A DNA stretch of 64,000 nt from positions 12,142-76,141 of IMG/VR virus record IMGVR_UViG_3300046028_006182, one strand, 5' to 3'. Source of the stretch: a virus. A program made the position numbers and the translations under genes. Numbering within the stretch: the first letter of the stretch is position 1; each line of letters opens with the position of its first letter. The notes under the pieces were generated by a model. It saw only the letters and a program-made list of their open reading frames with translations, was not told where the DNA came from and ran no database searches. Shown in pieces: positions 40,654 to 63,425 of the stretch.

Positions 40654-41217
40654 ATGGGTACTAGGATAAACAGCAGAGCCAAGGGGGCAAAGCACGAGAA
40701 AGAAGTTGCTAAGTTACTAGAGGCTTGGACTGGTAAAGAGTTTGCTAGGGTACCCAGCTCTGGGGGGCTAAGGTGGCACAAGACAAGTAATACCACTGGA
40801 GATATAACCTGTACAACAGAGGGCCACTACTTCCCGTTTTCAGTTGAAATAAAAGCCCGTAACAAAGTAGACTTTAGCAGAATACTAATCCCTTATAATG
40901 GTAACTCTAAGGCTGAGAAAGATAAGGACTCAGAGTTTGAAACCTTCTGGCAACAGGCTATCTCTGATGCTGACCGGGCAAAGAAAGAGCCCATACTATT
41001 TGTGAGGTACAATGGCATGAAGAAAGACCTATACTTTGTAGCTATAACCAAAGACCTGTTCTATGATTACTTTAAGCAGGCTACCTCCTGTACTAAGTAT
41101 CTAGTATATGGAGATAAAGAGTTTGTAGTAATACCCTCCACTGAGCTGTTTAAAGCTAACTATAAAAAGATAAAAGCCCACATTAAAACCTTGAGAAGCC
41201 ATGGGAAGAAAAAGTGA
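40654..41217 (+). CDS. Holliday junction resolvase (PD-(D/E)xK)
   Basis: SRAKGAKHE, RVPSSGG, GDI, VEIK, WQQA. Confidence 0.8.
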   Translation: MGTRINSRAKGAKHEKEVAKLLEAWTGKEFARVPSSGGLRWHKTSNTTGDITCTTEGHYFPFSVEIKARNKVDFSRILIPYNGNSKAEKDKDSEFETFWQQAISDADRAKKEPILFVRYNGMKKDLYFVAITKDLFYDYFKQATSCTKYLVYGDKEFVVIPSTELFKANYKKIKAHIKTLRSHGKKK

Positions 41218-41938: not shown

Positions 41939-41940
41939 CC

Positions 41941-42870
41941 ATGGGTTTACAAGACAATCCCGCTTGGAAGTGCCTAAACTTAGATGAGCAAACAGCTATA
42001 ACGCTAAAGCATATCAGTGGCAAGTCAAGCTGGGAAATAGGAGAGATAATGGGTAAAGCCCACTACAAGATGCTGGAGATACTTCAAAGGGGTGAGGTAC
42101 TTATGAAGCTATTTACGAACTACTATAAGTACGAGGAGAATTTCCCCCCAACGGACCTGGCTATTGATAAACCCCTCTATGAATACTTGCAGGGCTGCAT
42201 AGTTGGTCGTAATATGCCGGGCTCGGTAATCAAGGGCATAGATAACCCGGTATTCCAAAAGCCATTGAGCAGAGATAAGATGATTAATAAGGCTATAGAA
42301 GTTTGGGTAAAGTCATCTAACCAAAGGCTGGTACTTCTATCCCACACTATATTAGAGTTTGACAGGTGGAATAACTACCGCATACTGCCTGAGAGTATAC
42401 AGGAGCCCTCCGGATTTAAGAGGCGAAATAAGAATGCCGAAAAGAAAAGGATAGCTAGTTGGGTAGAGATTGATAAGACTATACTTTACCACCTTGAGGA
42501 GGAGTTATCTATACAAGAGGACCATGCTTACAAAGGCATGGGCTTTTGTGTATTATTCCAGGGCTCTTTCAGCCTGGGTAAGATTAAGAGATTTACTATC
42601 AATGACCATACCATTAAAGTACTATCCTCTTACAAGATATACCTATTCCCCGAGAATAAACCTACGGAGCTATTCAAGGAGCTAGTAGAGGAGTATTTCT
42701 CGAACGGCTCTAACACTCCCCGAATAGGCCAAGATTTCTGGAAGAAGTATCGGGACCTAGTAGAGCTAGCTATAAACTATAAAGAGGTACAAGGGATAAA
42801 ACCAGAGCGGGAACAGATAACTCCTAGCTTGAACCATTCAACCCAATCTAGAGGTTACTCGAATAAATAA
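41941..42870 (+). CDS. Protein with N-terminal sigma-region-4-like HTH
   Basis: LNLDEQTAITL....GKSSWEIGEIMG. Confidence 0.55.
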   Translation: MGLQDNPAWKCLNLDEQTAITLKHISGKSSWEIGEIMGKAHYKMLEILQRGEVLMKLFTNYYKYEENFPPTDLAIDKPLYEYLQGCIVGRNMPGSVIKGIDNPVFQKPLSRDKMINKAIEVWVKSSNQRLVLLSHTILEFDRWNNYRILPESIQEPSGFKRRNKNAEKKRIASWVEIDKTILYHLEEELSIQEDHAYKGMGFCVLFQGSFSLGKIKRFTINDHTIKVLSSYKIYLFPENKPTELFKELVEEYFSNGSNTPRIGQDFWKKYRDLVELAINYKEVQGIKPEREQITPSLNHSTQSRGYSNK

Positions 42871-49247: not shown

Positions 49248-49679
49248 ATGAGGGAGTTGAAAGTAAAGAACCGGGAAACTGGAGAGGTAAAGAGCTTTAG
49301 TCCTAGAGCATTTAGCTTATTTTCGGACACTAAGACCAAAGATGGGGTAGACTTATACGAGGGAGATATAGTCAGAATATCGACTATAGACTCCCTTGTT
49401 GAGTCTTTTAATAGGGACATAAGGACTATTGAAAAGATTACTGAGCCTACCCTTGCTCAGCAAAAAAGGCTAGAGAGGCTAAATAGGATTTTGAAGGCTA
49501 TAGAATATGTGAGTGGTAGTACTAACTCGGCATCACTAGTTTGTCAGATAGGCTATAACACGTATAGCTGCAGGTTCTCACTCTACATATTAGAGCCTGA
49601 CCGATGGGGAGTATCACCCTTTGTATGTGACCTTACCCAAAGCAATGTAGAGCTATTTAATATTATAGCCTATAAATAG
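49248..49679 (+). CDS. YopX-like protein
   Basis: MRELK, KDGVDLYEGDIV. Confidence 0.6.
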   Translation: MRELKVKNRETGEVKSFSPRAFSLFSDTKTKDGVDLYEGDIVRISTIDSLVESFNRDIRTIEKITEPTLAQQKRLERLNRILKAIEYVSGSTNSASLVCQIGYNTYSCRFSLYILEPDRWGVSPFVCDLTQSNVELFNIIAYK

Positions 49680-49686
49680 CCTTGCA

Positions 49687-49758
49687 ATTTAGAGTTGACA
49701 ATGGGTAAATTAGTTTGTATCTTTGTTTTATTAGTTAATTAGTCAAAACGAACGAAAG
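49687..49758 (+). promoter_or_regulatory. Early promoter repeat 1
   Basis: TTGACA-N17-TATCTTTG-TTTTATTAGTTAAT...AAAACGAACGAA-ATG. Confidence 0.85.
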
Positions 49759-50352
49759 ATGGCTTACAACAAGATGGACCCCAAATACTTCCACTTCTAT
49801 GCTCTAATGATGGACCTAGCTGACGAGGCTATTGTATTCATCGCAATCTCCGATGCCCCAGCTAAGTTACAGGAGAAGTTGAATGAGCGTATAGAATTTC
49901 TAATCCAGACCGCTAGGAAATTACATGATGACCTACAAAACTTCGGGGTAGATGTAATGAAGCCCCAAAGAAAAACCAAGCTTCTTTTTGAGAGGATGCT
50001 CAGCATATATATCCTAAGCCAAAATCTTAGTGGCAGCCGAAAGTGGGTTACCAAAAAGAAAAGCCGTTTAAGAAACTCCTACTCCGCTTTTGATAAAGCT
50101 CAGGTACTTACTGTGGACTCATTGGTAGAATTAGACCTAGAGGCTCGTATCACCTGCTTACTTGACTTCCTATATGCAGTACTAGATAAGCCCAAACTAT
50201 TTACTGAAGCAGGAGAGCCAATCATGGCAAATACCCACACTGCAAGGGGCTGTTGGGAAATGCTAGAGTTTATCGATATCCCCATGCCATCCTTTGAGAG
50301 CTATACTGAACTATCCCAGCAAAATACATTGAACCTAGTAAACTTGAACTAA
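49759..50352 (+). CDS. Hypothetical early protein
   Basis: ATG directly after promoter repeat. Confidence 0.6.
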   Translation: MAYNKMDPKYFHFYALMMDLADEAIVFIAISDAPAKLQEKLNERIEFLIQTARKLHDDLQNFGVDVMKPQRKTKLLFERMLSIYILSQNLSGSRKWVTKKKSRLRNSYSAFDKAQVLTVDSLVELDLEARITCLLDFLYAVLDKPKLFTEAGEPIMANTHTARGCWEMLEFIDIPMPSFESYTELSQQNTLNLVNLN

Positions 50353-50927
50353 TGAACATATTCTACTTGTCAAAAGACCCAAGGAAATGCGCTAGGTATC
50401 ATGTGGATAAGCACGTAGTGAAGATGATAGTTGAAACAGCCCAGTTGCTGAGTACGGCATTAGTTAAGAACGGTTACCGCTCTATTCAATCACCCGACAC
50501 ACCTATCTATAAGCCTACCCATCCAAATCACCCCAGTAATATATGGGCTAGGGCCAGCCAAGCTAATTTTGAATGGCTACATGACCTAGGTATAGAGCTA
50601 TGTAAAGAGTATGAGTTTCGATATAAAAGGGAGCATAAAACCAAAGCTACATTAGGTAACATCCTATTTGTGTACACTGTACTTGAGGCTAAGAAATCCT
50701 TTAGTACAGATAGTTTTACTCCCCCACCTGCGGTAATGCCCAATGAATTTATAATTGAGGGTAGGTCTATCGCCAGCTATCGGAACTACTACTCAAATGA
50801 CAAATTCCGATTACTTAGGTACTCGGGTAGAAACTTTAAATTTCCGGGGGGTATGCTAGGCAACTATCCCCCCTTTGTTGACAAGTACCATAGACCTGAA
50901 CCAGGCGCATGGCTACCTAATAAATAG
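50352..50927 (+). CDS. Pyrimidine-dimer DNA glycosylase/DenV-like family protein
   Basis: MNIF.L..DP..CA.YH.DKHVVKMIVE.AQLLST, YKPTH.NHP..W. Confidence 0.85.
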   Translation: MNIFYLSKDPRKCARYHVDKHVVKMIVETAQLLSTALVKNGYRSIQSPDTPIYKPTHPNHPSNIWARASQANFEWLHDLGIELCKEYEFRYKREHKTKATLGNILFVYTVLEAKKSFSTDSFTPPPAVMPNEFIIEGRSIASYRNYYSNDKFRLLRYSGRNFKFPGGMLGNYPPFVDKYHRPEPGAWLPNK

Positions 50928-50989
50928 CCTTTGATTTTAGGGTTGTTTGTTTCAATTTCAATTTGTATCTTTGTCTTATTAGTTAATCA
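50921..50989 (+). promoter_or_regulatory. Early promoter repeat 2
   Basis: TTGTTT-N17-TATCTTTG-TCTTATTAGTTAAT. Confidence 0.85.
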
Positions 50990-51008
50990 TTATAAACCGA
51001 TTAAAAAC

Positions 51009-51404
51009 ATGAGAGCATCAACAACACCCGCTACCCAAACCAAAAGGTTGAACCCCCATACTAAGGGCTCAATGGAATTTACCGAAGCTGAGGGTTACTT
51101 CACCCCTCGACAAATTGCCTTTATACAGGAGGCTAAAAAGACCCTTCGAGATTTAGCTCACCCGATGAGGTCAGCGATGATTGAAACCATCAATAAATCC
51201 GGCAAGGAAGGCATCACAGTGGGTGAGCTTCAGCACACCCTAAAGATTGAGCAATCTGTTACCTCGGCCCATCTGAAAGAGTTACGTTCCTCGGGTATTG
51301 CTCGAGTAAAAAGGGAGGGTAAATTCCGAGTATACACGATTGACCATGACGTGCTAAACCAAATCATGGACAACGCGGAAATCATTGCAAGGGTAGCTCA
51401 ATAA
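51009..51404 (+). CDS. ArsR-family HTH regulator
   Basis: LAHPMR...TVGEL...IEQSVTSAHLKELRSSGI...REGKFRVY; start corrected to ATG 51009. Confidence 0.88.
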   Translation: MRASTTPATQTKRLNPHTKGSMEFTEAEGYFTPRQIAFIQEAKKTLRDLAHPMRSAMIETINKSGKEGITVGELQHTLKIEQSVTSAHLKELRSSGIARVKREGKFRVYTIDHDVLNQIMDNAEIIARVAQ

Positions 51405-51410
51405 CGGGTT

Positions 51411-51740
51411 ATGCCGAGGAAGAGATACCTACTTACAGCTGGTTTCCTCTTGGGTACTTACTGGCTGGGTACATTGGAAGTTGAGCCCATAAAGCCCATA
51501 CCTACCGATGATACTCGGCCAGTAATGGACACCTCTAGAAGACTAGTAGACTATGACTGGGAGAAAGACCGGTATATTTATGAGGGTGACTATGACTCAT
51601 TAAGAAAGCACCCCTTTAGAAGTACCTTTATTTCTATACAGGAGTACGATGCTATACCTAATAGAATAAACCCTAGCCTAGAGCCCGGTTTTAAAGAGCC
51701 CGGTTATTATATTGACCTCGATAATATCGAAAACCCATGA
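51411..51740 (+). CDS. Hypothetical protein with N-terminal hydrophobic anchor
   Basis: MPRKRYLLTAGFLLGTYWLG. Confidence 0.5.
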   Translation: MPRKRYLLTAGFLLGTYWLGTLEVEPIKPIPTDDTRPVMDTSRRLVDYDWEKDRYIYEGDYDSLRKHPFRSTFISIQEYDAIPNRINPSLEPGFKEPGYYIDLDNIENP

Positions 51741-52090
51741 CCACAGATAATAAACATTACGAAGCTCGCAAATACTTCTTGGCTGACCTGTGTAGAATGC
51801 TCGGAATAAACACCGCCCATGACTATGATGGTATCGAGTCCGAGGAGGATATAGTAATCTATGAAAGGGTTACCCGAAATAAAATACAAAAGCTAGTGGA
51901 TGAAGCTAGTAAATCGAATATGCCGAGCCCGGGGGACTACTCCCGACTAACACTAGCAGACCATGAGATGATAGACGATTACCACACCCTGGGTATGCCT
52001 ACAGATGAGATAGTCATTGAGATGGAGGCTGAATACATCACATCAACGGAGGTGGAGCGGTCTCTTAAAGAGTGGGGTAGAAACCGTTAA
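51737..52090 (+). CDS. Hypothetical acidic protein
   Basis: ATGA-coupled ORF. Confidence 0.55.
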   Translation: MTTDNKHYEARKYFLADLCRMLGINTAHDYDGIESEEDIVIYERVTRNKIQKLVDEASKSNMPSPGDYSRLTLADHEMIDDYHTLGMPTDEIVIEMEAEYITSTEVERSLKEWGRNR

Positions 52091-52121
52091 CCTTAACTAC
52101 ACCCTAAAATAAAGGCCTTTA

Positions 52122-52180
52122 AATTTAGGGTTGCACAGTATTAATTCATTTTGTATCTTTGTCTTATTAGTTAATCATTA
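52122..52180 (+). promoter_or_regulatory. Early promoter repeat 3
   Basis: TTGCAC-N17-TATCTTTG-TCTTATTAGTTAAT. Confidence 0.85.
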
Positions 52181-52204
52181 TAAACTTAATCAAAAGTAAA
52201 CGCC

Positions 52205-52615
52205 ATGAAAAGCAACCCAAGTACCAAAGGTAATAACCCTGCTAAAGACGCAGCTACTACCGAAACCAAAAAAGTTGGTAAAGTAAAAACCAACCCATCT
52301 ACCCCGAAAGCTGATGCTCCAGCCGATGTAAAAGCGAAAAGCGCTGACGAGGTGAAGAAAAAGATTACCGCAGAAAAAGACCTTCTGTACCTTTACCCCG
52401 AGTCAGTTAATACTTTGGAAAAGCGCAAGACTTACCGCCGAGGTATACGTACCAAAATCCACTCTCTTGCAAAGCAGCTTGTAAAAGCTGAGGGCAAAGA
52501 GAAGAAGGAGCTCATCAAGGAGGTAAACGAATTTGCCAAAGAGCACTACACCAAAGAGGGTATTGCTAAAAATGTTACGCCCCTGCTTGCTTCTACCGCC
52601 GACTCTAAGAAGTAA
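52205..52615 (+). CDS. Lys-rich protein with YP...K.YR motif
   Basis: YLYPESVNTLEKRKTYRRGIRTK. Confidence 0.65.
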   Translation: MKSNPSTKGNNPAKDAATTETKKVGKVKTNPSTPKADAPADVKAKSADEVKKKITAEKDLLYLYPESVNTLEKRKTYRRGIRTKIHSLAKQLVKAEGKEKKELIKEVNEFAKEHYTKEGIAKNVTPLLASTADSKK

Positions 52616-52628
52616 GCGGGAGCGAGGA

Positions 52629-52674
52629 TTAGGACTGGGCATAGGGAAAGAAGCCGCCCAGTCCTAACCTTTTT
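52629..52674 (+). terminator. Intrinsic terminator
   Basis: TTAGGACTGGGC/GCCCAGTCCTAA plus T tract. Confidence 0.75.
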
Positions 52675-52699
52675 ATTCACTTTCAAAAACGCGAACGAC

Positions 52700-53455
52700 A
52701 TGACCGTTGATAAGTCAGAAAAAATCCGGGGTAAGATAAAAGCCCTACTAGCAAAACAGCTGAGCGCTGAGAAGCTCGGTGAACTATCCGAAGCTCAGAA
52801 ATGCGCTAACCTTATATCTCGATTAACCCTCGAGTACAACATCTCTCTTGACGAAACCTTTGAGCAGTCTAATACCACGGGTGAGAGAGCCTACCATATA
52901 CACAAGAAAGTTATCCCTACTGCGGAAGTAGAAAGACGGCACGAGTCCGACTGGGTAAGGTCCCTATACATGGTACTTGCTAAAGCTAACTATTGCAGAA
53001 CCCTGCTAGTTATCTCTAGGGGGGGTGACCGAATAGAAATACTCGGGGAAGAGCACAATATCGAGACTGTAGATGCCCTTTGCCGAGTACTGATGGAACA
53101 GCTCAGAGGATTATCTCTATCTGAATTTACCAAGTACCAGGGGCCCGAGAAAAGAAATACCTACCGAAGAGGCTTCCTACGGGGAGCGGTAAACGGTATC
53201 CGGGAACAACTTGAAGCCCAGGCAAAAGAACAAGAGACCAAGGGAGTACAGCTAGAAGATGGTAAATTCCTTCCAGCTCTAGTTATTACCACCAGCAAAG
53301 AGGCTATTACTACAGCTATTAACGAATTTGCTAGAAACGAATACAAAGGCTTTGCTTCTAAGTCCTCTGCCCGACAGGGTTTGAGTGGAGTAGGAGGTGC
53401 TGCTCGAGGACGGGAAGTAGGACGTAATATCAACCTCGGAAAAGGCATCAACTAA
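52700..53455 (+). CDS. DUF2786-like protein
   Basis: KIKALLA.....SEA......L..EYNI; RRGFLRG; GAARGREVG. Confidence 0.75.
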   Translation: MTVDKSEKIRGKIKALLAKQLSAEKLGELSEAQKCANLISRLTLEYNISLDETFEQSNTTGERAYHIHKKVIPTAEVERRHESDWVRSLYMVLAKANYCRTLLVISRGGDRIEILGEEHNIETVDALCRVLMEQLRGLSLSEFTKYQGPEKRNTYRRGFLRGAVNGIREQLEAQAKEQETKGVQLEDGKFLPALVITTSKEAITTAINEFARNEYKGFASKSSARQGLSGVGGAARGREVGRNINLGKGIN

Positions 53456-53802
53456 TGGGCACCACTGAGTACTATATGAAAGCTCCTTGTAAGGAATGCC
53501 CGTTTAGGGTAGATGTATATCCTTACTTAACGCCCGAGAGAGGCGAGGAGCTAGCAAGCTCAGCAACTAATAAGTATAACTCCTTCCCTTGCCATAAGAC
53601 AACCGAAAATATAGATATTGAGGATGGCTTTGGGCGGACTGTTACTCAAAACTCAAAAGTATGTGCTGGGTTCTTAACCTTGCAGTATAATGAGACCGGC
53701 TGCTCATTACCCGATGGGTTTACACCGTCTAACTTGATTTACTCCGACTCTTTTGAAATGATACAGGTATATGAAAATCCCGAAGAATATGGCCCAAGTT
53801 AG
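53455..53802 (+). CDS. Cys-rich protein (DUF6283-like)
   Basis: PCKECPFR...FPCHKT...CAG. Confidence 0.65.
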   Translation: MGTTEYYMKAPCKECPFRVDVYPYLTPERGEELASSATNKYNSFPCHKTTENIDIEDGFGRTVTQNSKVCAGFLTLQYNETGCSLPDGFTPSNLIYSDSFEMIQVYENPEEYGPS

Positions 53803-54139
53803 AGCACACCTATTAGGATATAGCCTTGAGTATCAATACTACCCACACGTAAGTAAAGAACGTGGGCCCTATATTCTTATAACTATCCCAATGCTACGTA
53901 TCTCTATACGGGGTAAGCTACACAAGGAGGGTAAGCTATATGTATGCAAGGAAACCAAGTTGGGGGATATTGAAATACCCCGAGAAGTGGTTAAATATTG
54001 CATATCTCAAGTAAACGAAAATCAAGCAAATCATATACTTTTACCTAAGCGTATCTTAGATAAACTAGAGAAGACATGGGCAAAGAAAAAACTACACCGA
54101 AATCAATCAGAGAGGAGCAAACGGAAGCGCAGGAAATAA
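53771..54139 (+). CDS. Hypothetical basic protein
   Basis: Coupled ORF. Confidence 0.5.
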   Translation: MKIPKNMAQVRAHLLGYSLEYQYYPHVSKERGPYILITIPMLRISIRGKLHKEGKLYVCKETKLGDIEIPREVVKYCISQVNENQANHILLPKRILDKLEKTWAKKKLHRNQSERSKRKRRK

Positions 54140-54459
54140 ACGCAAGGCTCCTAAAGCGAGCTGTAAAGCTAGAGGTAGAGCATTTTATGAGCTTTATCCC
54201 CAGAGGAGGCCTTTATGACCTTGACGAGGTATATAGGGGTAAGCTAAAGCTAGTTCTAATCTACTTAGCCGTAAAGATGACCTATGACGAGGATGTTTCT
54301 CCAAGATACCTACGTACACTTATTGAACTATACGCCAGGGGTGTCTGGCACCGGGTTGTAAAGGCTACTATGGGCCCTACTCTGATGGAGTCATCTTCTT
54401 TATTACTTCCCTATATAGCCCAGTTCTATGGGTATGTTAAAGGGCGACAACAAAATTAA
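54076..54459 (+). CDS. Hypothetical protein
   Basis: Coupled ORF. Confidence 0.5.
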   Translation: MGKEKTTPKSIREEQTEAQEINARLLKRAVKLEVEHFMSFIPRGGLYDLDEVYRGKLKLVLIYLAVKMTYDEDVSPRYLRTLIELYARGVWHRVVKATMGPTLMESSSLLLPYIAQFYGYVKGRQQN

Positions 54460-54477
54460 AACATAAAAACCTAAACC

Positions 54478-54858
54478 ATGGCACTAGAGCTAGTAACTAT
54501 TACCAAGGAGCATATCCAAAAAATTGCTCGATATATCTACTTTCCCGACACTACTGATGAGGCTAAGACCTTTACAGTTGAAGAGCAAGAAAGAAACCTT
54601 AAATCTCTTGAGCACTGTACTTCGGTTTGGGTTAAGCTATTCGAAGTATTGCCTCTATCTACTAAGATAGCTATTCAGTACTCTAGGCATCCCGATGGTA
54701 AAGACTATATATTTATCATCCACACCAACTTAGTTCCCACTGACTACCCCATTGCAAATCAGTTTTTGGGCGAGATTGCCGATGAAGGCTCCGTAGATGG
54801 GCAATACTATGTGAGGGAATACATTACCTTCATGCTACATAGATTTGAACACGCATGA
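54478..54858 (+). CDS. Hypothetical protein, probable paralogue of 61047-61427
   Basis: ITKEHIQKIAR...W..L...LP..T.IA...S.HP.....I.I.T shared pattern. Confidence 0.6.
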   Translation: MALELVTITKEHIQKIARYIYFPDTTDEAKTFTVEEQERNLKSLEHCTSVWVKLFEVLPLSTKIAIQYSRHPDGKDYIFIIHTNLVPTDYPIANQFLGEIADEGSVDGQYYVREYITFMLHRFEHA

Positions 54859-55127
54859 GCCAGGACGAAATCAAAAAAGTAACTAGACTGACCCGACTAC
54901 ACGTTGATATCCTTGTAGCTGTTAGTATATTGCAGAACCATGTGCCTTACAAGCAATTCTGTAAAAACGCTCAACATAAAGTAGCGATAGATGAGCTTAT
55001 AGAACTAGGACATATCCACAAAACCTCATACCGAAAAACTGAGTGGTTGCAGATAGGTAGCCATGTAGTTACGAACTCCTATGATGGCTTTGTTAGAGGT
55101 ATACTATCATTTAAGCCCACTATATAG
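54855..55127 (+). CDS. Hypothetical protein
   Basis: ATGA-coupled ORF. Confidence 0.5.
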   Translation: MSQDEIKKVTRLTRLHVDILVAVSILQNHVPYKQFCKNAQHKVAIDELIELGHIHKTSYRKTEWLQIGSHVVTNSYDGFVRGILSFKPTI

Positions 55128-55134
55128 CCATCTA

Positions 55135-55190
55135 ATTTAGAGTTGTTTCATGGTAAATTAGTTTGTATCTTTGTTTTATTAGTTAATTAG
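55135..55190 (+). promoter_or_regulatory. Early promoter repeat 4
   Basis: TTGTTT-N17-TATCTTTG-TTTTATTAGTTAAT. Confidence 0.85.
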
Positions 55191-55205
55191 TATAAACCAA
55201 CTAAG

Positions 55206-55565
55206 ATGACACTATCAATCCCAACCCTAGTAGCTGTAATAGAAGATGCTACCCATTTAGAAGGGCTCTTTACTCCCCCTTCTGTAAGCCAGACTCCTTT
55301 AGATAACTTGGTAAGAAAGGCTGCCCAGCATGTTGCCAATCAACTCGGACCAGACGGTGACCGAGACGTGCTAGAACATTGGACACGAGTACTGGTGATG
55401 TCAGTAATTACCTCATTCGTAGACCGCGACATCGCTTCATTCATAGACCATAGCCCTGCATCCTTCATAGATGCCGAAAGAGAACTAAATAAATGGGATA
55501 TCACCTTTGAAGATGAAGAATGCCATCGAGTTCGCTTAACCTATATCGAGGACTATGGAAGCTAA
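55206..55565 (+). CDS. Hypothetical early protein
   Basis: Single gene between repeats 4 and 5. Confidence 0.6.
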   Translation: MTLSIPTLVAVIEDATHLEGLFTPPSVSQTPLDNLVRKAAQHVANQLGPDGDRDVLEHWTRVLVMSVITSFVDRDIASFIDHSPASFIDAERELNKWDITFEDEECHRVRLTYIEDYGS

Positions 55566-55571
55566 ACCCAA

Positions 55572-55656
55572 TAAATAGCCTTTGATTTTAGGGTTGTTTG
55601 TTTCAATTTCAATTTGTATCTTTGTTTTATTAGTTAATCAGTCAAAACGAACGAAA
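55572..55656 (+). promoter_or_regulatory. Early promoter repeat 5
   Basis: Near-identical to repeat 2 over ~68 bp, plus AAAACGAACGAA leader. Confidence 0.85.
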
Positions 55657-55938
55657 ATGCCCCTACCTTTAAAATTAACGCAAGAGTCCCGAGAGCGACT
55701 CCATAACCAAAGGATAAAATCCGTTGGAGAAGACTTTGTTTTACTTGAGGACGGTACACACTTGCAACTAGCCCAATGGGCAGTACACCAGGTGAATGAG
55801 TCCACCGAAAAGATTAAAAAGCCCTTCGTTAATCCCCAGCAGACTCCTCGAAACATATCCCGAGCTACCCTGCACTTGGATGACAAAACCGACCGCGATC
55901 CCGATTTCTATAGCCCTAAATCTAATAACCATGCCTAG
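55657..55938 (+). CDS. Hypothetical early protein
   Basis: Start corrected to ATG 55657 after the repeat. Confidence 0.55.
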   Translation: MPLPLKLTQESRERLHNQRIKSVGEDFVLLEDGTHLQLAQWAVHQVNESTEKIKKPFVNPQQTPRNISRATLHLDDKTDRDPDFYSPKSNNHA

Positions 55939-56704
55939 AGCAGCTAAAACTCCCCGCCACTCTAGGAAACAGATGGACGAAGCCATGCACAAGTATATAG
56001 TAATGGCAGAAGAGAGTGCCGTAATTGCATTTACTTTACAATTACCTATAACAACCCAAATAGGTTACACCAGTAAAACACTGGACATCGTTGACCTTGA
56101 TAACTTGCCGATGCCCCCTGCCAGGCTTTACGTTATACCCGCAAAAACCCAAGCTGAGTTTTGGGCTATCATTGCGGTGGACTCATTCTATACTTGGTGG
56201 AGTAAATACTCAAAGCTCTATCAAGAATGCCCCCGGGTATTATTTTACCTTAAGTCAGCCCGGTTTCACCCAGGGCTGGAGCATCTATCAGACCCGCTCG
56301 AGTCCGTAGTAGTTTACCTTATGAACCCCGATGACAATGAACTATGGGTTATTACCGATAAGCAACGAGCCCTAAGCTTCAAAAATTGGGATATAGAGAC
56401 CTCTACGAATTATCGGCTGGGTGAAGATATCCTTAAAGAGGAAATGGATAAATTACCCGACTCTGCCAAAGTTAAAGTACTATACCGTGCCCTGGACCGG
56501 ATGGATAACAAAAAAACAAAAGGCAAACTGGGCTGCTTACTTGAAGTACTTGGGTACCGAGAGCTACAAGATAGTCCCGGTTACTATGAGCCTATTCCTA
56601 AAGAAGAGTTTGTAGTAATACCCCACACAGAGAGGTACACTGCCGATTACCATGATGAGGATGACCGGGCCTCTGACAACATCCCTAACACTATAAGCCG
56701 ATAG
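55931..56704 (+). CDS. Hypothetical protein
   Basis: Start corrected to ATG 55931 (MPRAAK), coupled to the upstream stop. Confidence 0.55.
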   Translation: MPRAAKTPRHSRKQMDEAMHKYIVMAEESAVIAFTLQLPITTQIGYTSKTLDIVDLDNLPMPPARLYVIPAKTQAEFWAIIAVDSFYTWWSKYSKLYQECPRVLFYLKSARFHPGLEHLSDPLESVVVYLMNPDDNELWVITDKQRALSFKNWDIETSTNYRLGEDILKEEMDKLPDSAKVKVLYRALDRMDNKKTKGKLGCLLEVLGYRELQDSPGYYEPIPKEEFVVIPHTERYTADYHDEDDRASDNIPNTISR

Positions 56705-56705
56705 T

Positions 56706-57107
56706 ATGAACATAAGAGCTCAACAAATTCTACTGACAGCCATAGTAATGGCCGCTGCGATAATGGGTACTATTACTATAGCTAGCCTTATTATCTACTC
56801 AGCAGGTATAGTAGATAAGCCCCAAAGACCTCAATACGAGTTTATTGCAAGCCCAAATGATTACCAAGAGCTGGGCTTCCAAATGGACACTACTATCCGG
56901 GTATATGACCTTGATGAGTTAATCTATGAGGGTACTGATACTTTGGAAGCTATCGCTATATCTCTACACTCACTAGATACCTTACTAGGGGTAGCAGTGA
57001 TAAAGGGCGATTGTTTTCATATTGAAAAGGATGCTCAAGCATCACATGACTTGCTTTATAAAATGATACGAGGCGCAGAGTGTATTAATGCACTAGACCT
57101 CTATTAA
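56706..57107 (+). CDS. N-terminally membrane-anchored protein
   Basis: Long hydrophobic N-terminal helix. Confidence 0.55.
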   Translation: MNIRAQQILLTAIVMAAAIMGTITIASLIIYSAGIVDKPQRPQYEFIASPNDYQELGFQMDTTIRVYDLDELIYEGTDTLEAIAISLHSLDTLLGVAVIKGDCFHIEKDAQASHDLLYKMIRGAECINALDLY

Positions 57108-57140
57108 AACTATGCTCAAAAGAACTTTAACTCTATAACT

Positions 57141-57413
57141 ATGGCTCAGCATATTCATATACCCTTAGGTAAAGATGCCTTCCTAATAAACACAGGCGTA
57201 TCTAGTAACGGTATGCCTGCTATAAGTATTTGCATGAGAGCTGAGGAAGACCCCGTAGAAAACGGAATACTTAGACATAGCTCGATAGAAGCTGCCACTC
57301 AGTTTATAGATGACCGGGGGGCGCTTATAATAAGCGTGGGAAGTATGCAAGCACTAGAGGTATTAGAGGAATGTTTAAAAAGAATAAGAGCTCAGCTAGA
57401 GCTAAAACAATAA
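57141..57413 (+). CDS. Hypothetical protein
   Basis: 90 aa ORF before terminator. Confidence 0.5.
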   Translation: MAQHIHIPLGKDAFLINTGVSSNGMPAISICMRAEEDPVENGILRHSSIEAATQFIDDRGALIISVGSMQALEVLEECLKRIRAQLELKQ

Positions 57414-57443
57414 CTGGTTTCTTCGTTCGTTACCTGTGACTGG

Positions 57444-57480
57444 GTACCCGGTAGGACTCAAAACTCTACCGGGTACTTTT
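57444..57480 (+). terminator. Intrinsic terminator
   Basis: GTACCCGGTAG/CTACCGGGTAC plus T4. Confidence 0.85.
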
Positions 57481-57490
57481 ATTTAAACCC

Positions 57491-57579
57491 GAATTAAAGG
57501 CTTTATAATTTGAGGTTGTTTGTTTCAATTTCAATTTGTATCTTTGTTTTATTAGTTAATCAGTCAAAACGAACGAACG
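57491..57579 (+). promoter_or_regulatory. Early promoter repeat 6
   Basis: TTGTTT-N17-TATCTTTG...AAAACGAACGAACG-ATG. Confidence 0.85.
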
Positions 57580-57852
57580 ATGTCATCCTGGAACCAAAAA
57601 CCCTACGACTCTAAACTCCTTTCCCAGAAAGGCCCCTGCGACAATGTAGAACTTCTTGCCCATTACCGTAAGCTAATCTATGGAACCCTACATTTGAATG
57701 GGGCGGATTACGAAACCAAAAAGGTACTAATGCAAATCTTTGACCTTTACGTAACCAAAGATACTATACGCGAATACATCAACTATTCAGCCGAAGACCT
57801 TTGCAGGATGATGCTCACCGAAACTATGGTACCTAAAAACATCGGAAACTAA
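57580..57852 (+). CDS. Hypothetical early protein
   Basis: ATG directly after repeat. Confidence 0.6.
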   Translation: MSSWNQKPYDSKLLSQKGPCDNVELLAHYRKLIYGTLHLNGADYETKKVLMQIFDLYVTKDTIREYINYSAEDLCRMMLTETMVPKNIGN

Positions 57853-57866
57853 AAACCCTTTACTAT

Positions 57867-58265
57867 ATGAAGCCTACACGAGGACCTCAAAGAAGGACTA
57901 CTATAATAGAGCTAGCTCATCAATTAAAGCAGAGCTTGCAGAGAGAGGCTCAGCCATATCCTTTAAAAGACTATGTAAAGAGCTTAATGATTTCACACGA
58001 TGCCGGGATGCCGGGCCCCTGGGAGGAATTTTGCGAAAAGATTGAACAGTACACCAACGCAGTCCGGGTTTACCAATCCTTTATCACAGAGTCTGATATA
58101 CTATTACACCTAGCCTCTACCATAAAGAAGATAAACAAAAGGCTTTCCCAGGAGAGAGGCTCTAAGATTGACTTGATAGGTACTTACCTATCCGGCCCAC
58201 CCTACACTCTACTCCAATACATCGACAGATTGGATAAACTATCATTTAAAGAGCCTAAACTATAA
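57867..58265 (+). CDS. Hypothetical protein
   Basis: 132 aa ORF. Confidence 0.5.
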   Translation: MKPTRGPQRRTTIIELAHQLKQSLQREAQPYPLKDYVKSLMISHDAGMPGPWEEFCEKIEQYTNAVRVYQSFITESDILLHLASTIKKINKRLSQERGSKIDLIGTYLSGPPYTLLQYIDRLDKLSFKEPKL

Positions 58266-58269
58266 AAAC

Positions 58270-58848
58270 ATGGGACTAAAACCCTACTACCGAAACCGGG
58301 CTATCCTAAAGCTCACATCTCATCCCCTAGTTACAGTGGGCCAAAAGCGATTGCTTAAGCTAGCAATCCACCTATATAAGACCAACTTCGATAAGCTGGG
58401 CAGGTACTTTGACTTCGGTACCTACCACAATGCGGGAGCCCAATGGGAACACCCGACAACCAAACAGATTGTATGTGGGACTTCTGGGTGTGCTATAGGG
58501 GAATTACCTTACCTTGAGGAAAACGTTTGGATTTTTAGCGATAACGCTCCTATCCTAAAGGACTTATACCTTAGAAGCCATATAGACCCCGTAGAGTTCA
58601 GAGAGGAGAATGAAATAATACCAAGCATTGTGGAGTACAGCAGCCTTACGTGGTTTAAAATAAAAAGGAAGGAGTACGCTCACCTATTCCTACCGGTCAG
58701 GCAGAACATCTTAGCTTATGGGGGTAAAGAACTTGGCGCCGGAGCCACTCCCCAAGAGGTAGCGGATAACATAATAATATTCCTCTGTGTACAGCTAAAC
58801 TTAAGGTACTTATTACTTGACCTAAAACCCTATGAGCATGAGAGTTAA
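58270..58848 (+). CDS. CxTxGC-motif protein, paralogue A
   Basis: FDFGTY..CGTSGCAIGELPY..HLF.P..VADNI. Confidence 0.65.
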   Translation: MGLKPYYRNRAILKLTSHPLVTVGQKRLLKLAIHLYKTNFDKLGRYFDFGTYHNAGAQWEHPTTKQIVCGTSGCAIGELPYLEENVWIFSDNAPILKDLYLRSHIDPVEFREENEIIPSIVEYSSLTWFKIKRKEYAHLFLPVRQNILAYGGKELGAGATPQEVADNIIIFLCVQLNLRYLLLDLKPYEHES

Positions 58849-59041
58849 ATACTTGAAAGATGAAACCATGCCAGACTTGGTATGGATGACACGATTAGAA
58901 CTTGGGAGGTATAAGCGCACGGCTATGATTAATCACGCCACTAGGACCGTAAGACCTTGCCATGGTTACTACCCAAATCACAAATTCGCGGCTCTAAATA
59001 GGCGTATAGCTTATCGGATGAATTACCAGTGGCTAGGCTAG
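58832..59041 (+). CDS. Small basic hypothetical protein
   Basis: Coupled ORF. Confidence 0.45.
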   Translation: MSMRVKYLKDETMPDLVWMTRLELGRYKRTAMINHATRTVRPCHGYYPNHKFAALNRRIAYRMNYQWLG

Positions 59042-59078
59042 TATAAACAAATAACAAGAACCTTTAAAAAGCTATAAA

Positions 59079-59663
59079 ATGGAATACACTTTTCCTAATG
59101 TGGTTAACAACTTCACTGATACCCAAAAGAAAGAAGCTCTAGATAAGCTATACCATCTGCCCGATGCAAATGACTATGACAGTGGTTTAAATCGCTTGCT
59201 AAGACTTTACACCCACCTAGTAGAGGGTGATACCGGCATACGTACCTTTAACTTCGGAACATACAATTCCGGGCCCACAGAGAGAGGCGATAAGGGTAAT
59301 ACTATACACTATTGCCAAACTGCAGGCTGTGCGGTAGGAGAACTACCCTATATTGAACCAAGCAGTTGGTTATTCCAGCAAGCCTCACACCCAATACTTA
59401 ACCCTAAGCTACGTAAGCGAGCAAGAGCTAAGTTTGAGAGTGTTAACCACATACTTGACACCATAGAGATGTATACTATGTACTGGTTCAACATCTCAAG
59501 GGATGAGTCCTTGCATCTCTTTATACCCCAGCAACAGAGTCCTTTAAAATTCGGGGGTATAAAGGTGAGCAGACACGCTACTAAATTACAAGTAGCTGAC
59601 AATATCCTCTACTTTTTAATATGCAAACACCTCCTACCATCACCTGAATTAAAGGCTTTATAA
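59079..59663 (+). CDS. CxTxGC-motif protein, paralogue B
   Basis: FNFGTY..CQTAGCAVGELPY..HLF.P..VADNI. Confidence 0.65.
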   Translation: MEYTFPNVVNNFTDTQKKEALDKLYHLPDANDYDSGLNRLLRLYTHLVEGDTGIRTFNFGTYNSGPTERGDKGNTIHYCQTAGCAVGELPYIEPSSWLFQQASHPILNPKLRKRARAKFESVNHILDTIEMYTMYWFNISRDESLHLFIPQQQSPLKFGGIKVSRHATKLQVADNILYFLICKHLLPSPELKAL

Positions 59664-59734
59664 TTTAGAGTTGTTTCATGGTAAATTAGTTTGTATCTTT
59701 GTTTTATTAGTTAATTAGTCAAAACGAACGAACG
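59646..59734 (+). promoter_or_regulatory. Early promoter repeat 7
   Basis: Core matches repeat 4; leader as repeats 6 and 8. Confidence 0.85.
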
Positions 59735-60151
59735 ATGACCCCATTAACCATTGCCCCCATTACCCAGGCTTTTATCAATGCCTTTTGCACCTCAACCGTT
59801 GAATACCCAATCGGAAGTGGACAATACGTTGAAGGCTTAAACATGGTACCCATCTCTGCACTCAATGACCCCAATCTCGATGCCGAGAAAGAATTTCCGG
59901 GAGTATCACTAGAGCTAAAGGCTTTATATGTCAACCACTCGATTAAAAAGGAGCTCGAAGAGCGAAATCCTGAAACTTACGTGCCGGGTACCTTTACAGA
60001 ACTTGAAAAGGTTGCTTGGGCTCATCATACCCTTATGAATGCCTATGCCATGAACATCGGCTCACATGAGGACTGGAGAAAAGCTTTCCACGAAATTGCC
60101 AATGAAAGACCATTAACCTACAAACTGCTTGAGCTATATGCTTGGGGCTAA
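59735..60151 (+). CDS. Hypothetical early protein
   Basis: ATG directly after repeat. Confidence 0.6.
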   Translation: MTPLTIAPITQAFINAFCTSTVEYPIGSGQYVEGLNMVPISALNDPNLDAEKEFPGVSLELKALYVNHSIKKELEERNPETYVPGTFTELEKVAWAHHTLMNAYAMNIGSHEDWRKAFHEIANERPLTYKLLELYAWG

Positions 60152-60160
60152 AAGACCACT

Positions 60161-60451
60161 ATGAAAACCATTAAACACTACAAGGAGCTAACCATGGTTC
60201 AGCTTGCTGCTCTACTCTTATTCCAATCCATGGAATGCCCATCTGATGCACCCCAAGCTCACTTCCTAGAAGAGCTAAATGGTATACTATCTAATATCCT
60301 CGGAACTAATGCTATTGATGCACTAGACGAGGACGGAATGATAGCTGGACATGAATACTTAGCACCAGAGGACGAGGAAGAGCTCAGATTGCTCTATGCC
60401 TTCGACTTTATGGAGGCCTTAAGTTATCTGCAAAACTTCCCCCCGAATTAA
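60161..60451 (+). CDS. Acidic hypothetical protein
   Basis: 96 aa ORF. Confidence 0.5.
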   Translation: MKTIKHYKELTMVQLAALLLFQSMECPSDAPQAHFLEELNGILSNILGTNAIDALDEDGMIAGHEYLAPEDEEELRLLYAFDFMEALSYLQNFPPN

Positions 60452-60533
60452 AGGCTATGCAATTTAGAGTTGACAGATGGTATATAATGATGTATCTTTG
60501 TTTTATTAGTTAATTAGTCAAAACGAACGAACG
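60445..60533 (+). promoter_or_regulatory. Early promoter repeat 8
   Basis: TTGACA-N17-TATCTTTG...AAAACGAACGAACG-ATG. Confidence 0.85.
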
Positions 60534-61043
60534 ATGAACCCCTTAATCCCAAAAGATTACATTAACTCCAAAACCATACACAGCTTCATTAATGTGATGG
60601 GCCTGGGAATAGAAACCACTGACAGGTACCATGATGGACCAGTCTACCACTCTCCAAACCTTGACCAGATGTTTCGACTCAAGTTTTATCAAGACTTCAT
60701 TGACCCTGCCTCGTTCTACCACTTCGATATACCCAATTATGCTCAAGCCGGGCTTGTCAACGAGGTAATGAGTAGAACCTGTACCAAAGAGCTTTGGAAA
60801 GAAAAGCTGCACCAATGGAGGAAACACAATTACCAGATGTGCTTAGCTGCGACAGACTATTGCCCATTCGCTATACTATACACGAACCCAAGTACGGGGC
60901 GACTAGAATACTTTGATGTATATAAAACCCGACTAGAGGCCCTGGAAAACCTGAAGACTGCCCCTAAGGGTGCCTTCATTAAGGAAACACCTGAACACGA
61001 TGACGCTAACTCTTTTATTAACTACGCAGAAAGACAACTCTAA
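60534..61043 (+). CDS. Hypothetical early protein
   Basis: ATG directly after repeat. Confidence 0.6.
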   Translation: MNPLIPKDYINSKTIHSFINVMGLGIETTDRYHDGPVYHSPNLDQMFRLKFYQDFIDPASFYHFDIPNYAQAGLVNEVMSRTCTKELWKEKLHQWRKHNYQMCLAATDYCPFAILYTNPSTGRLEYFDVYKTRLEALENLKTAPKGAFIKETPEHDDANSFINYAERQL

Positions 61044-61046
61044 CCC

Positions 61047-61427
61047 ATGCAAAGCCCACAGCTTCAACCTATAACCTTGAAACTTGCAGAACAGCTTGCA
61101 AGGCTATTCCACAAAAGGCCTAAGATGCCTGAGCTAACGGAGGACAATAAGACAACCTGGGAAAGATACGGGGAAGACGATGCCATGATATGGTTATCTA
61201 TTCTCCGAAAACTACCTAAGGGAACACACATTGCCTTTTCCCAAAGCTACCACCCAAGCTCCCATAACCTAACCATTGTCATATACACTGATATAGAGAA
61301 CACACACGGTATAGGTGAGAGCTATGACTTTTCCCAATTCCGAAACTGCCTATCCGGAGAAAGCGGACACGAAATCCAACAAGCCGGGGTAGAATACTAT
61401 CAATTCACTCTAGTCGAAAACTATTAA
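61047..61427 (+). CDS. Hypothetical protein, probable paralogue of 54478-54858
   Basis: Same length (126 aa); ITLKLAEQLAR...W..I...LP..T.IA...S.HP. Confidence 0.6.
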   Translation: MQSPQLQPITLKLAEQLARLFHKRPKMPELTEDNKTTWERYGEDDAMIWLSILRKLPKGTHIAFSQSYHPSSHNLTIVIYTDIENTHGIGESYDFSQFRNCLSGESGHEIQQAGVEYYQFTLVENY

Positions 61428-61430
61428 GCC

Positions 61431-62105
61431 ATGCCTAAAGAAACTATCTACGTACCGCACTACTTCCACGGGGAATACGATATACCCGAAATACTAAGGG
61501 CTGTTAACCTACCTTGGAGAGTAATCCAAGCCTCAGTATATCTCGACGGCCCTACTATGAACAACCTAATAGAGGACCTAGATTTAGATGAGGACAGCAT
61601 AAACGACTACCTTATGTCCCTACACGGCGTCTCGACAGAGGAAGATGAACCTATTGCCACGGTATTAGCTATAGAGTATGATCCCGAACTATTGACTGAG
61701 CAATGGGCTCTCAATATCCTTAACATCGGCATAAACATAACAATTGAGGCCTACGGGGATGACGACAGAGAGGACTACATGCCCGACACCGTAAGAGCTC
61801 TAATCGCTATACTATCAAAGGTAGGCCACCAACCATTAGCTGACAGACTCATACAAGAGCTCGATAAGGTAACAGACAAACCTGAACCTGAACCTGAGCC
61901 TGAGCCAAAAGCTCCCACTAAATACTCAACTGCCCATTTAGATAGACTGGGTATGGAATACGAAGCTGCATACCCATCACCGGGGGGAATAAATGACTTG
62001 GAAGGACTCTATAACTGGGAAGCCGGTGACCCAGCTAACCGAGTACTACAGATACTTAAATCAGAGGAGGAGGCCAAGGCTTACCTTAAATCTCTGAAAA
62101 GATAA
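61431..62105 (+). CDS. Acidic hypothetical protein with EP linker
   Basis: D/E-rich; KPEPEPEPEPK. Confidence 0.55.
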   Translation: MPKETIYVPHYFHGEYDIPEILRAVNLPWRVIQASVYLDGPTMNNLIEDLDLDEDSINDYLMSLHGVSTEEDEPIATVLAIEYDPELLTEQWALNILNIGINITIEAYGDDDREDYMPDTVRALIAILSKVGHQPLADRLIQELDKVTDKPEPEPEPEPKAPTKYSTAHLDRLGMEYEAAYPSPGGINDLEGLYNWEAGDPANRVLQILKSEEEAKAYLKSLKR

Positions 62106-62155
62106 ACATCCCTAAACCACAGGGAATACAATACACGTTCGTTCCGTTCGAGGGG

Positions 62156-62180
62156 GGGAGCTCACAAGGCTCCCTTTCTT
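62156..62180 (+). terminator. Intrinsic terminator
   Basis: GGGAGC-tcacaag-GCTCCC plus TTTCTT. Confidence 0.7.
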
Positions 62181-62359
62181 GTGTAAATCCTTAAACTGCT
62201 AGTAAATACTATGATAGAACTCATGGTAATATACTATAAGCTAGACAGTTAACTAGAGTAGGGTACTCTACAAGAATATCCCAACCAACTAGTGCACGAT
62301 ACTAGAGCCATATAATAAGTAACCATATCCCTAAAAAGCTAAAGAAAAAACTACTAAAG

Positions 62360-63100
62360 ATGAAACCAGAGAGAAGACACCCAAGACCATTGGGAACAAC
62401 CGACCTTGCAATCAAATATCACAAATCACAGAACAACAAGGACCTAATACTATTATATAAGCACATCATAAAGAACTACGTAAAGACCAGCTTTAGGCTT
62501 AATGGGATTTCGGCTAGTATGGAGGAATTGGCAAACTATCTAGGTTTGAGTCCAGCAAGGCTTCAGGTTCTGTTTTTAGCGGTAACAGGAGAAATGGCTA
62601 ATGTGTTTAGTGATAAAGGAGAGGTAGAGAAGGCTTTGAGGGCTGTAACGTTCTCGAGCCTAGAAGGAGCCCTAGCGGATCGAGGCCGTATACTCCAACA
62701 CCTTGATATGCTTATGTTTGACCAGCAATCACGATACACCCCGTTCTTGACCGCAGAGGTAGGGAAAACACTTAAACTCCTATTAGAGAGCCACAAGCCC
62801 GTAGCCGAAATCATTAAGATGTTCTCTGCCTTACCTGCCACAACCCAAATCAATATCCTGAATGCCCAAGGGCCAACTGAGAATACTAACAACTACCTAA
62901 CCGTTACTAAGGCCGTAGAGGCCCTAAACGAAAACCAAACATCCCTACAACAGAGCCCACTAGACATGCAGGCCATTGCAGCCGAATACGACCTATCCCA
63001 TAGTCCCGAAGTACGAGCCACACATCAGCATAGTAATGTTAATGAGTCTGCTGGTTCAGGTAGGGTTGAAGGTACAGTGATTAAGGTATCGGGTTCTTAG
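62360..63100 (+). CDS. HTH-containing protein, possible small terminase or origin-binding protein
   Basis: SMEELANYLGLSPARL HTH; QINILN motif; adjacent to repeat-rich non-coding DNA. Confidence 0.4.
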   Translation: MKPERRHPRPLGTTDLAIKYHKSQNNKDLILLYKHIIKNYVKTSFRLNGISASMEELANYLGLSPARLQVLFLAVTGEMANVFSDKGEVEKALRAVTFSSLEGALADRGRILQHLDMLMFDQQSRYTPFLTAEVGKTLKLLLESHKPVAEIIKMFSALPATTQINILNAQGPTENTNNYLTVTKAVEALNENQTSLQQSPLDMQAIAAEYDLSHSPEVRATHQHSNVNESAGSGRVEGTVIKVSGS

Positions 63101-63120
63101 CTTTTCCTGGTATTGGTTTG

Positions 63121-63153
63121 AGGCCCATTGCCCTTTGTGGTGATGGGCTTTTT
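63121..63153 (+). terminator. Intrinsic terminator
   Basis: GCCCATTGCC/GGTGATGGGC plus T5. Confidence 0.7.
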
Positions 63154-63181
63154 AGTGTACGGTACCGCACCCCTACCTTGT

Positions 63182-63315
63182 AAAAGGCCTACAACAAGGG
63201 GCGTGTATAAGGCCGCCACTGGCCTTCTCTAATTTTGTATTGGGCCCCAAAAGCCTACAACAATGGGCCCGAACTGGCCAGGCTTTAGGCCATTCTCTAA
63301 ATTGTATCAGGCCAC
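63182..63315. repeat. Degenerate ~67-bp tandem duplication with TGTATnnGGCC boxes
   Basis: GCCTACAACAA and TTCTCTAA.(T)TTGTAT..GGCC each occur twice, about 67 bp apart. Confidence 0.7.
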
Positions 63316-63366
63316 TGATGGCCGAAGAATTAAAGCCTTTAATGGCCAAAAATTAAAGAGCCCCCT

Positions 63367-63425
63367 ATTTTAGGGTTGCACAGTATTATTTCAATTTGTA
63401 TCTTTGTCTTATTAGTTAATCATTA
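63367..63425 (+). promoter_or_regulatory. Early promoter repeat 9
   Basis: TTGCAC-N17-TATCTTTG-TCTTATTAGTTAAT. Confidence 0.85.

Follow-up and report, generated by a model that had tools for sequence, protein, structure and literature searches.

The subject of this report is a pair of short antisense tracts in the early region of an uncultured lake-water phage whose complete 76,141-bp genome is held as IMG/VR record IMGVR_UViG_3300046028_006182; the window, i.e., the whole stretch of 64,000 nucleotides (nt) that was analysed, corresponds to bases 12142-76141 of that record, which has a 35-bp terminal overlap. Each tract lies in a 3' untranslated region (3'UTR), just upstream of an intrinsic terminator, and is complementary to the leader of AACG repeats, (AACG)n, that adjoins the start codon of several early genes. 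We interpret the tracts as RNA-level anti-leader elements, whose pairing with the leaders, in cis or in trans, would limit translation of the first genes that carry them, and, judging from sequence complementarity, placement and predicted folds, we put the probability of this interpretation at about one half.

The components of the two 3' ends are as follows (positions are those of the window, unless given as genome positions):

57414..57442, plus strand: anti-leader tract of 3'UTR 1 (site 1), with the core TTCGTTCGTT at 57422-57431, a second arm TGACTG at 57437-57442, and an upstream arm TGGTTTC at 57415-57421.
57443..57484, plus strand: intrinsic terminator 1, with a G+C-rich stem of 13 bp, a loop of 9 nt and, after the hairpin, TTTTATTT.
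62109..62125, plus strand: small 5-bp hairpin at the start of 3'UTR 2.
62134..62150, plus strand: anti-leader tract of 3'UTR 2 (site 2), CGTTCGTTCCGTTCG at 62136-62150, complementary to the UG of AUG as well as to leader positions -12 to -1, the latter with a single bulged C.
62156..62183, plus strand: intrinsic terminator 2, with the stem GGGAGC/GCTCCC and, after it, a weaker T-run, TTTCTTGTGT.

A preliminary description of this DNA had placed the two motifs, at 57422-57431 and 62136-62150, just upstream of terminators, and both are found there. The preceding stop codons end at 57413 and 62105, so that each tract is enclosed between a stop codon and a terminator; the terminator hairpins have predicted energies of -20.8 kcal/mol (57443-57477) and -11.1 kcal/mol (62156-62174). 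In centroid folds of the isolated 3' ends, both tracts are unpaired and stand directly 5' of the hairpin. The two 3'UTRs have no similarity to each other outside the motif, which indicates two independent occurrences. On the plus strand of the entire genome, the heptamer GTTCGTT is found only at these two sites, in agreement with the earlier remark that the motif had not been noticed in other intergenic regions. A search of Rfam returned no family match. Two other accounts of the tracts were considered and rejected. A leader read from the opposite strand is not compatible with the lack of a TAnnTTTG box on the minus strand near either site, where the open reading frames (ORFs) are only tiny (one of them, with 16 codons, begins at a GTG that comes after the reverse complement of site 2). 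An internal promoter for an independent small RNA was likewise discarded, as the ~150 nt that precede each tract contain no TAnnTTTG box.

The sequence to which the tracts are complementary is the 3' end of the leader that is common to five of the nine early promoter repeats. The sense motif AACGAACGAA adjoins ATG in repeats 1, 5, 6, 7 and 8, starting at 49747, 55646, 57568, 59723 and 60522, respectively, so that the reverse-complement relationship reported for these five repeats is correct; the matches are in fact longer than was claimed. The five repeats are:

49667..49761, plus strand: promoter repeat 1, leader AACGAACGAA at 49747-49756, ATG at 49759; the corresponding unit (P49717) is closed by a terminator at 52626, which has no antisense tract.
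55566..55659, plus strand: promoter repeat 5 (TTG, 20 nt, TATCTTTG), leader AACGAACGAA at 55646-55655, ATG at 55657; the unit closed by terminator 1 is predicted to begin here.
57488..57582, plus strand: promoter repeat 6, (AACG)3 leader at 57568-57579, ATG at 57580; in the unit closed by terminator 2, this promoter comes first.
59643..59737, plus strand: promoter repeat 7, (AACG)3 leader at 59723-59734, ATG at 59735.
60442..60536, plus strand: promoter repeat 8, (AACG)3 leader at 60522-60533, ATG at 60534.

Four of these five leaders belong to units closed by a tract; the repeat 1 leader could be a target in trans only. Repeats 7 and 8 begin within the 3' ends of the preceding genes (59643-59663 and 60442-60451), and thus encode the C-terminal residues and stop codons of these genes. 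A hexamer, CAGTCA or TAGTCA, recurs just 5' of ATG in the leaders of this phage (49740, 55640, 57562, 59717 and 60516), and (AACG)n is placed between this element and ATG.

The composition of these leaders makes sense in the light of the probable host. A Shine-Dalgarno-like core is found upstream (-25 to -1) of only four of the 97 plus-strand phage genes, against a background of 15.6%, i.e., it is depleted, and the frequency of A at positions -14 to -11 of the same genes is 53-75%. In Flavobacterium johnsoniae, the rate of initiation is set by A at -12, -13, -3 and -6, together with low secondary structure (PMC6847099). The depletion of Shine-Dalgarno cores and the A-rich positions -14 to -11 together match the start-site signature of Bacteroidota and point to a member of this phylum as the likely host of this lake phage. 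Likewise, all nine promoter repeats (TTG, 20 nt, TATCTTTG) fit the sigma-A consensus of Bacteroidota, TTTG at -33 and TAnnTTTG at -7 (quoted in PMC7366714). In the (AACG)3 leader, A occupies -14 to -11, -8, -7, -4 and -3, and since these positions match the F. johnsoniae signature, the name translation leader is fair. Outside the repeats, the sense motif is present once, at +5 to +15 in a gene located at genome position 761, which has its own TATCTTTG promoter ~120 nt upstream, a structured leader of ~118 nt and its own terminator; this copy ties the motif to start sites, rather than to the distance from a promoter, and the gene could be reached by the tracts only in trans. The copy itself, AACGAACGAAC at genome 761-776, 11.4 kb before the start of the window, makes up codons 2-5 of this 160-aa Lys/Ala-rich early gene.

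Leader and tract would be brought together on one transcript if the promoter motifs and terminators are read at face value. For folding, we set transcription starts ~5 nt after the -7 box; the results are equilibrium predictions, computed without ribosomes or co-transcriptional folding. Site 1 is predicted to form helices of 6 and 9-10 bp, in which TGACTG pairs with CAGTCA at -19 to -14, and the core pairs with -12 to -3. The strongest predicted partner of 3'UTR 1 is the repeat 6 leader with the start of gene 57580, where a third helix is formed between the upstream arm TGGTTTC and GGAACCA in codons 4-6, giving a total of 22 bp and -26.0 kcal/mol. Site 2 is predicted to form 12 bp with one bulge, covering -12 to -1 of the (AACG)3 leaders and the UG of AUG; its 3'UTR pairs at -15 to -16 kcal/mol with the (AACG)3 leaders of its own unit, and at -10.6 to -11 kcal/mol with the two shorter leaders. 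Leader positions -12 to -1, in some cases together with the start codon, lie within these predicted duplexes of -15 to -26 kcal/mol, which take in the adenine positions of the F. johnsoniae signature.

This pairing is also recovered when complete messages are folded. In the transcripts from P60492 to T62180 (1,679 nt) and from P55616 to T57480 (1,855 nt), the leader core is found on the tract in the minimum free energy (MFE) structure, with pairing probabilities of 0.85-1.0 per core nucleotide; in the former, i.e., the repeat 8 message, the partner of the leader is 62134-62148. In the 2,478-nt message that starts at repeat 7, the tract is predicted to be taken by the 5'-terminal leader, and the internal leader is left free. 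Scrambling the tract leaves the leader mostly unpaired in the fold. In four control units that have no tract, the mean pairing probability between the start region and the 60 nt before the terminator is 0.00-0.15, compared to 0.55 for the same 23 positions of the repeat 8 unit.

Whether two such complements would be expected by chance depends on what is counted. By number alone, they are unremarkable: the 7-mer is found twice, with ~1.7 expected per strand (3.5 on both strands in shuffled sequences), and one would expect, in about every second or third genome of this size, a 10-nt stretch that complements a portion of a 17-nt leader. The heptamer is unique to the two sites on the plus strand, but its count is at chance level, and the signal is in the length and the location of the matches. 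When the plus strand was scanned with the 21-nt leader core, site 1 was the best site genome-wide, at -18.7 kcal/mol, and exceeded the best sites in all of the twelve Markov genomes (-12.4 to -16.5 kcal/mol). The second-best plus-strand complement (-18.0 kcal/mol) is at 22916, inside a minus-strand ORF (22545-23222), which is among the very few long minus-strand ORFs without a plus-strand overlap and has a terminator-like hairpin at its 3' end (22536-22559). With regard to location, a leader complement is present in the 35 nt upstream of two of the 11 intergenic plus-strand terminators, namely only those at 57443 and 62156; the genome-wide fractions for these two windows are 0.0002 and 0.0009, versus 0.03-0.88 for the other nine. 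The probability per terminator window is 1.2e-4 under a genome Markov model and 3.8e-4 under an intergenic Markov model, so that the probability of two or more such windows out of 11 is 7e-7 to 8e-6, before correction for the post-hoc choice of hypothesis. The placement is non-random even with a 100- to 1,000-fold post-hoc penalty.

A sequence of events that would follow from these features can be sketched. Host RNA polymerase would start at the repeated Bacteroidota-type promoters and produce 5' leaders of ~29 nt, in which the last 12 nt are two or three AACG repeats, (AACG)2-3. If transcription reaches the terminator at 57443 or 62156, the message would gain an unpaired tract just 5' of the hairpin, complementary to leader positions ~-12 to -1 and, additionally, to CAGTC at -19 to -15 (site 1) or to the UG of AUG (site 2). 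In a cis version of this scheme, the finished message would close upon itself, 5' to 3'; in a trans version, a terminator-protected 3' fragment would act on any of the five cassettes with the motif, as well as on the gene at genome position 761. As there are no Shine-Dalgarno start sites, pairing would mask the signals on which start-site selection relies, hiding the A-tract and A-3 positions needed by ribosomes of such hosts, so that the first early gene of a cassette may be limited. The outcome would be delayed self-repression. Thus, of the negative feedback or timer that was proposed earlier, the structural premises hold, i.e., placement, single-strandedness, complementarity and predicted pairing; these were computed directly from the sequence, and the conjectural parts of the model are the ends of the transcripts, the pairing inside the cell and its consequence for translation. 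The same proposal extended the feedback to several cassettes, which agrees with the presence of motif leaders in both terminated units, but not with the four cassettes that lack the motif, nor with the P49717 unit, which ends without a tract.

A broader version of this idea, which we regard as doubtful, is that a common (AACG)n leader tags at least six early-gene starts, that the anti-leader tracts end two long early units, and that completed transcripts or their terminator-protected tails silence the whole tagged set, acting as a transcription-length timer for early, probably host-takeover, proteins. If repression by the tracts is real, even without this extension, it would be a compact, RNA-only feedback loop, built of parts as short as 12-30 nt, in a setting where, without Shine-Dalgarno recognition, start-site accessibility is the main control point. 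The leader tag and its two 3'UTR complements would then constitute a small phage regulon that needs no protein regulator, and phages of Bacteroidota would join the few known bacterial cases of pairing between 5' and 3' UTRs or of autoregulation by 3'UTR-derived RNA.

Several observations weigh against repression by the tracts. One unit that does carry the motif, starting at repeats 1-3, is closed by the third terminator of the early block (52626), where the 3'UTR is 10 nt long and has no antisense tract, and repeats 2, 3, 4 and 9, i.e., four of the nine cassettes, have other leaders. Co-transcriptional translation could keep the leader occupied by ribosomes. Site 2 is only third genome-wide in its energy with the leader core (-14.7 kcal/mol), no better than the typical best site of a random genome, and when every 3'UTR is compared to every start region, chance duplexes of -18 to -24 kcal/mol are obtained; with chance duplexes this strong, energy alone is not special, and it is the location that carries the signal. 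The same data served both to form the hypothesis and to test it, and (AACG)n, being a tandem 4-mer, can arise by slippage. No close relatives were found, hence covariation between leader and tract, which had been suggested as a check, gives no support, and seven distant relatives, each examined with its own repeated leaders, show no antisense enrichment before terminators (the lowest fraction is 0.008 in ~55 tests). The signal is clean, yet it comes from one orphan genome and from calculation.

A rival view is that the tracts have no function, being either decayed inverted copies of a leader with its start codon, left by recombination between cassettes, or chance products of slippage in CGTT tandems. 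The promoter cassettes are mosaic repeats prone to recombination, the count of the 7-mer and the energy of site 2 are what chance would give, and the distant relatives do without the feature. The reverse complement of site 1 reads CAGTCA, a gap, AACGAACGAA, G and AAACC, which resembles a diverged leader with its start codon, and that of site 2 is (AACG)3 with a 1-nt insertion, followed by TG. Such an origin would nonetheless have to account for two independent occurrences in unrelated 3'UTRs, both within the ~0.5% of the genome that lies just before a terminator, in a genome that is ~89% coding and has little room for useless sequence. We know of no mechanism that would place inverted 15-30-nt copies of a leader specifically before terminators, which also counts against this view, and we consider it rather unlikely. 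A different role for site 1 is suggested by the identity of its best partner. In the manner of lambda sib, it may act only in RNA that has read through the terminator at 57443, blocking the start of gene 57580 ~140 nt downstream, so that transcripts from its own promoter would be the only ones from which this gene is translated; the duplex may also be cleaved, and site 2 would be unrelated or have a different role. 3'UTR 1 indeed pairs best with the start of the next gene (-26.0 kcal/mol, helices of 6, 9 and 7 bp, from -19 to +17), and in a 196-nt RNA that spans both, the long-range pairing is present in the MFE and centroid structures, with a z-score of -5.5. On the other hand, site 2 has no comparable partner downstream (-6.9 kcal/mol with gene 62360 and -14.3 kcal/mol at P63398), and terminator 1 is strong, so that read-through may be rare. 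The proposed NusG-like antiterminator of the phage is not confirmed by Pfam, where the protein encoded at 41201-41938 shows no NusG/KOW domain. Insulation of this kind is, in our judgment, quite unlikely.

It is also conceivable that the motif works as DNA, irrespective of strand, either as (AACG)n sites for a protein of phage or host origin (for example a repressor of early genes, a roadblock or a factor that loops DNA) or as crossover sites of an invertase that would flip the 118-bp segment with terminator and promoter. Sense and inverted copies of the motif both exist, and they are confined either to control regions that do not code for protein or to the start of a gene; terminator 1 and promoter repeat 6 are flanked by an inverted repeat whose 20-nt arms, site 1 and the leader at 57561-57580, are 80% complementary and 118 nt apart. 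ACGTWCGT-like cores are a feature of the inverted repeats at invertible promoters of Bacteroides, and ACGTTCGT in site 2 can be set beside them; a literature search for the longer form, ARACGTWCGT, gave no match. The genome, however, lacks genes for serine or tyrosine recombinases (neither a Resolvase nor a Phage_integrase domain is present), and contigs at ~1,200-fold depth show one orientation only, though contigs cannot reveal minor forms; mapping of the contigs of two lake-water runs to the phage revealed no joints. DNA operators do not usually consist of direct 4-bp repeats, it is not obvious what a protein bound just before a terminator would do, and the copy at genome 761, ~120 nt from its promoter and inside the start of a coding region, is in an odd place for an operator. 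We consider a DNA-level function very unlikely. Equally improbable, in our opinion, is that the same 5'-3' pairing serves message stability or processing rather than repression. The predicted pairing is identical in the two cases, and a precedent is hbs of Bacillus subtilis, whose 5'/3'-UTR interaction is described as affecting decay of the messenger RNA (mRNA) (PMC5737220). The duplex in this phage, however, is predicted to leave the first ~17 nt of the 5' end free and to cover the start region, which makes repression the more direct consequence.

Repression by anti-leader tracts has its closest known analogs, as far as the comparison can be carried, in icaR and in OppZ/CarZ. In icaR (PMC3868564), as in the phage, a short 3'UTR motif complements the ribosome-loading region of its own message, and blocked initiation and a double-stranded segment would be the predicted results. 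The target in icaR is a Shine-Dalgarno sequence and the 3'UTR is long, whereas the phage has no Shine-Dalgarno sequence and the predicted target is the A-rich leader from -12 to -1 and the start codon. Other differences on the predicted phage side are the position of the tract directly before the terminator, the polycistronic early messages, the leader shared by five cassettes, and the two separate 3'UTRs that complement it. The resemblance to OppZ/CarZ of Vibrio cholerae (PMC7398697) would be in having the regulator in the 3'UTR of an operon, where it shares the terminator and pairs with the start region of its own transcript, with delayed negative feedback. OppZ and CarZ are cut by RNase E and depend on Hfq; the putative target of the phage tract is the leader of the first cistron, which is shared with other operons. 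In the centroid folds, both tracts offer a single-stranded seed 5' of the terminator hairpin, as is the case for small RNAs that come from 3'UTRs. To our knowledge, Bacteroidota do not have Hfq. Among phages, lambda sib and the pairing between the mRNA 3' end and the ribosome-binding site in T7 gene 1.1-1.2 are cases in which a gene is controlled by a 3' sequence on its own message, with an outcome set by the site at which the transcript stops. The target of sib is an upstream gene, and control is exerted through decay by RNase III in read-through RNA only; in the phage analysed here, only site 1 has a read-through partner, and this is the downstream gene. The PeSL cassettes of T4-type phages are promoter/stem-loop repeats described as recombination modules. 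The repeated early promoters of the present phage, some of them with terminator hairpins, similarly divide the early region into small cassettes of orphan genes, but the antisense relation between 3' end and leader is not part of the PeSL concept.

Megablast and blastn against phage records found no close relatives of this phage, and searches of IMG/VR with the promoter pattern and with a neighbouring 224-aa protein gave nothing usable. In a word-indexed search among 5.8 billion proteins, two early proteins each matched only themselves, and are therefore orphans; Pfam gave no match for the early proteins. With the 246-aa protein encoded at 62360-63100, exhaustive HMMER searches found homologs of at most 37% identity, and it was by an alignment search of IMG/VR with this protein that the distant relatives were reached. 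They have promoters of the form TTTGCA...TAnnTTTG and A/U-rich leaders, often with TAGTCA and a few A/T before ATG, and no (AACG)n. As these relatives do not have the feature, the tracts appear to be lineage-specific or recent, which neither supports nor excludes a function. The TAGTCA/CAGTCA element recurs in the repeated leaders of several of the distant relatives (L011, L012, L015 and L017). A search for TGACTA in the relatives found one weak 8-nt case, in L015 (12415-12440), where TGACTAAA is placed in a 3'UTR ~48 nt before a terminator and complements the leader element TTTAGTCA of the same genome; an 8-mer in A/T-rich DNA is not significant alone. The promoter pattern was also found in six metagenome contigs, none of them related to the phage by protein or DNA. 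The 22-nt sequence TATCTTTGTATTATTAGTTAAT, which consists of the -7 box and the following bases of the phage promoters, is present in exact form in these six contigs (L021-L026), three of which share one element; tblastn and blastn detect no relation to the phage, and chance matches in A/T-rich DNA are a plausible explanation.

The gene content of the genome, nearly all of it on the plus strand, is that of a phage with a tail sheath, tape measure, baseplate, a DnaB-like helicase and a family A DNA polymerase. There is distant synteny with phage DP SC_6_H4_2017 from human faeces, over ~40 genes with 20-57% protein identity. Two proteins encoded at 41201-42870 have no Pfam match at E <= 0.01, and both are conserved in phage DP SC_6_H4_2017. 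The source is a lake-water metagenome, in which the word depth of the phage is ~1,200-fold. The phage is present in two lake-water DNA runs; the second lake study has the same phage with two single-nucleotide polymorphisms, neither of them at the motifs. The contigs of the source-run assembly break at every promoter repeat (49727-63417), which suggests that these repeats are long and alike enough to fragment a short-read assembly.

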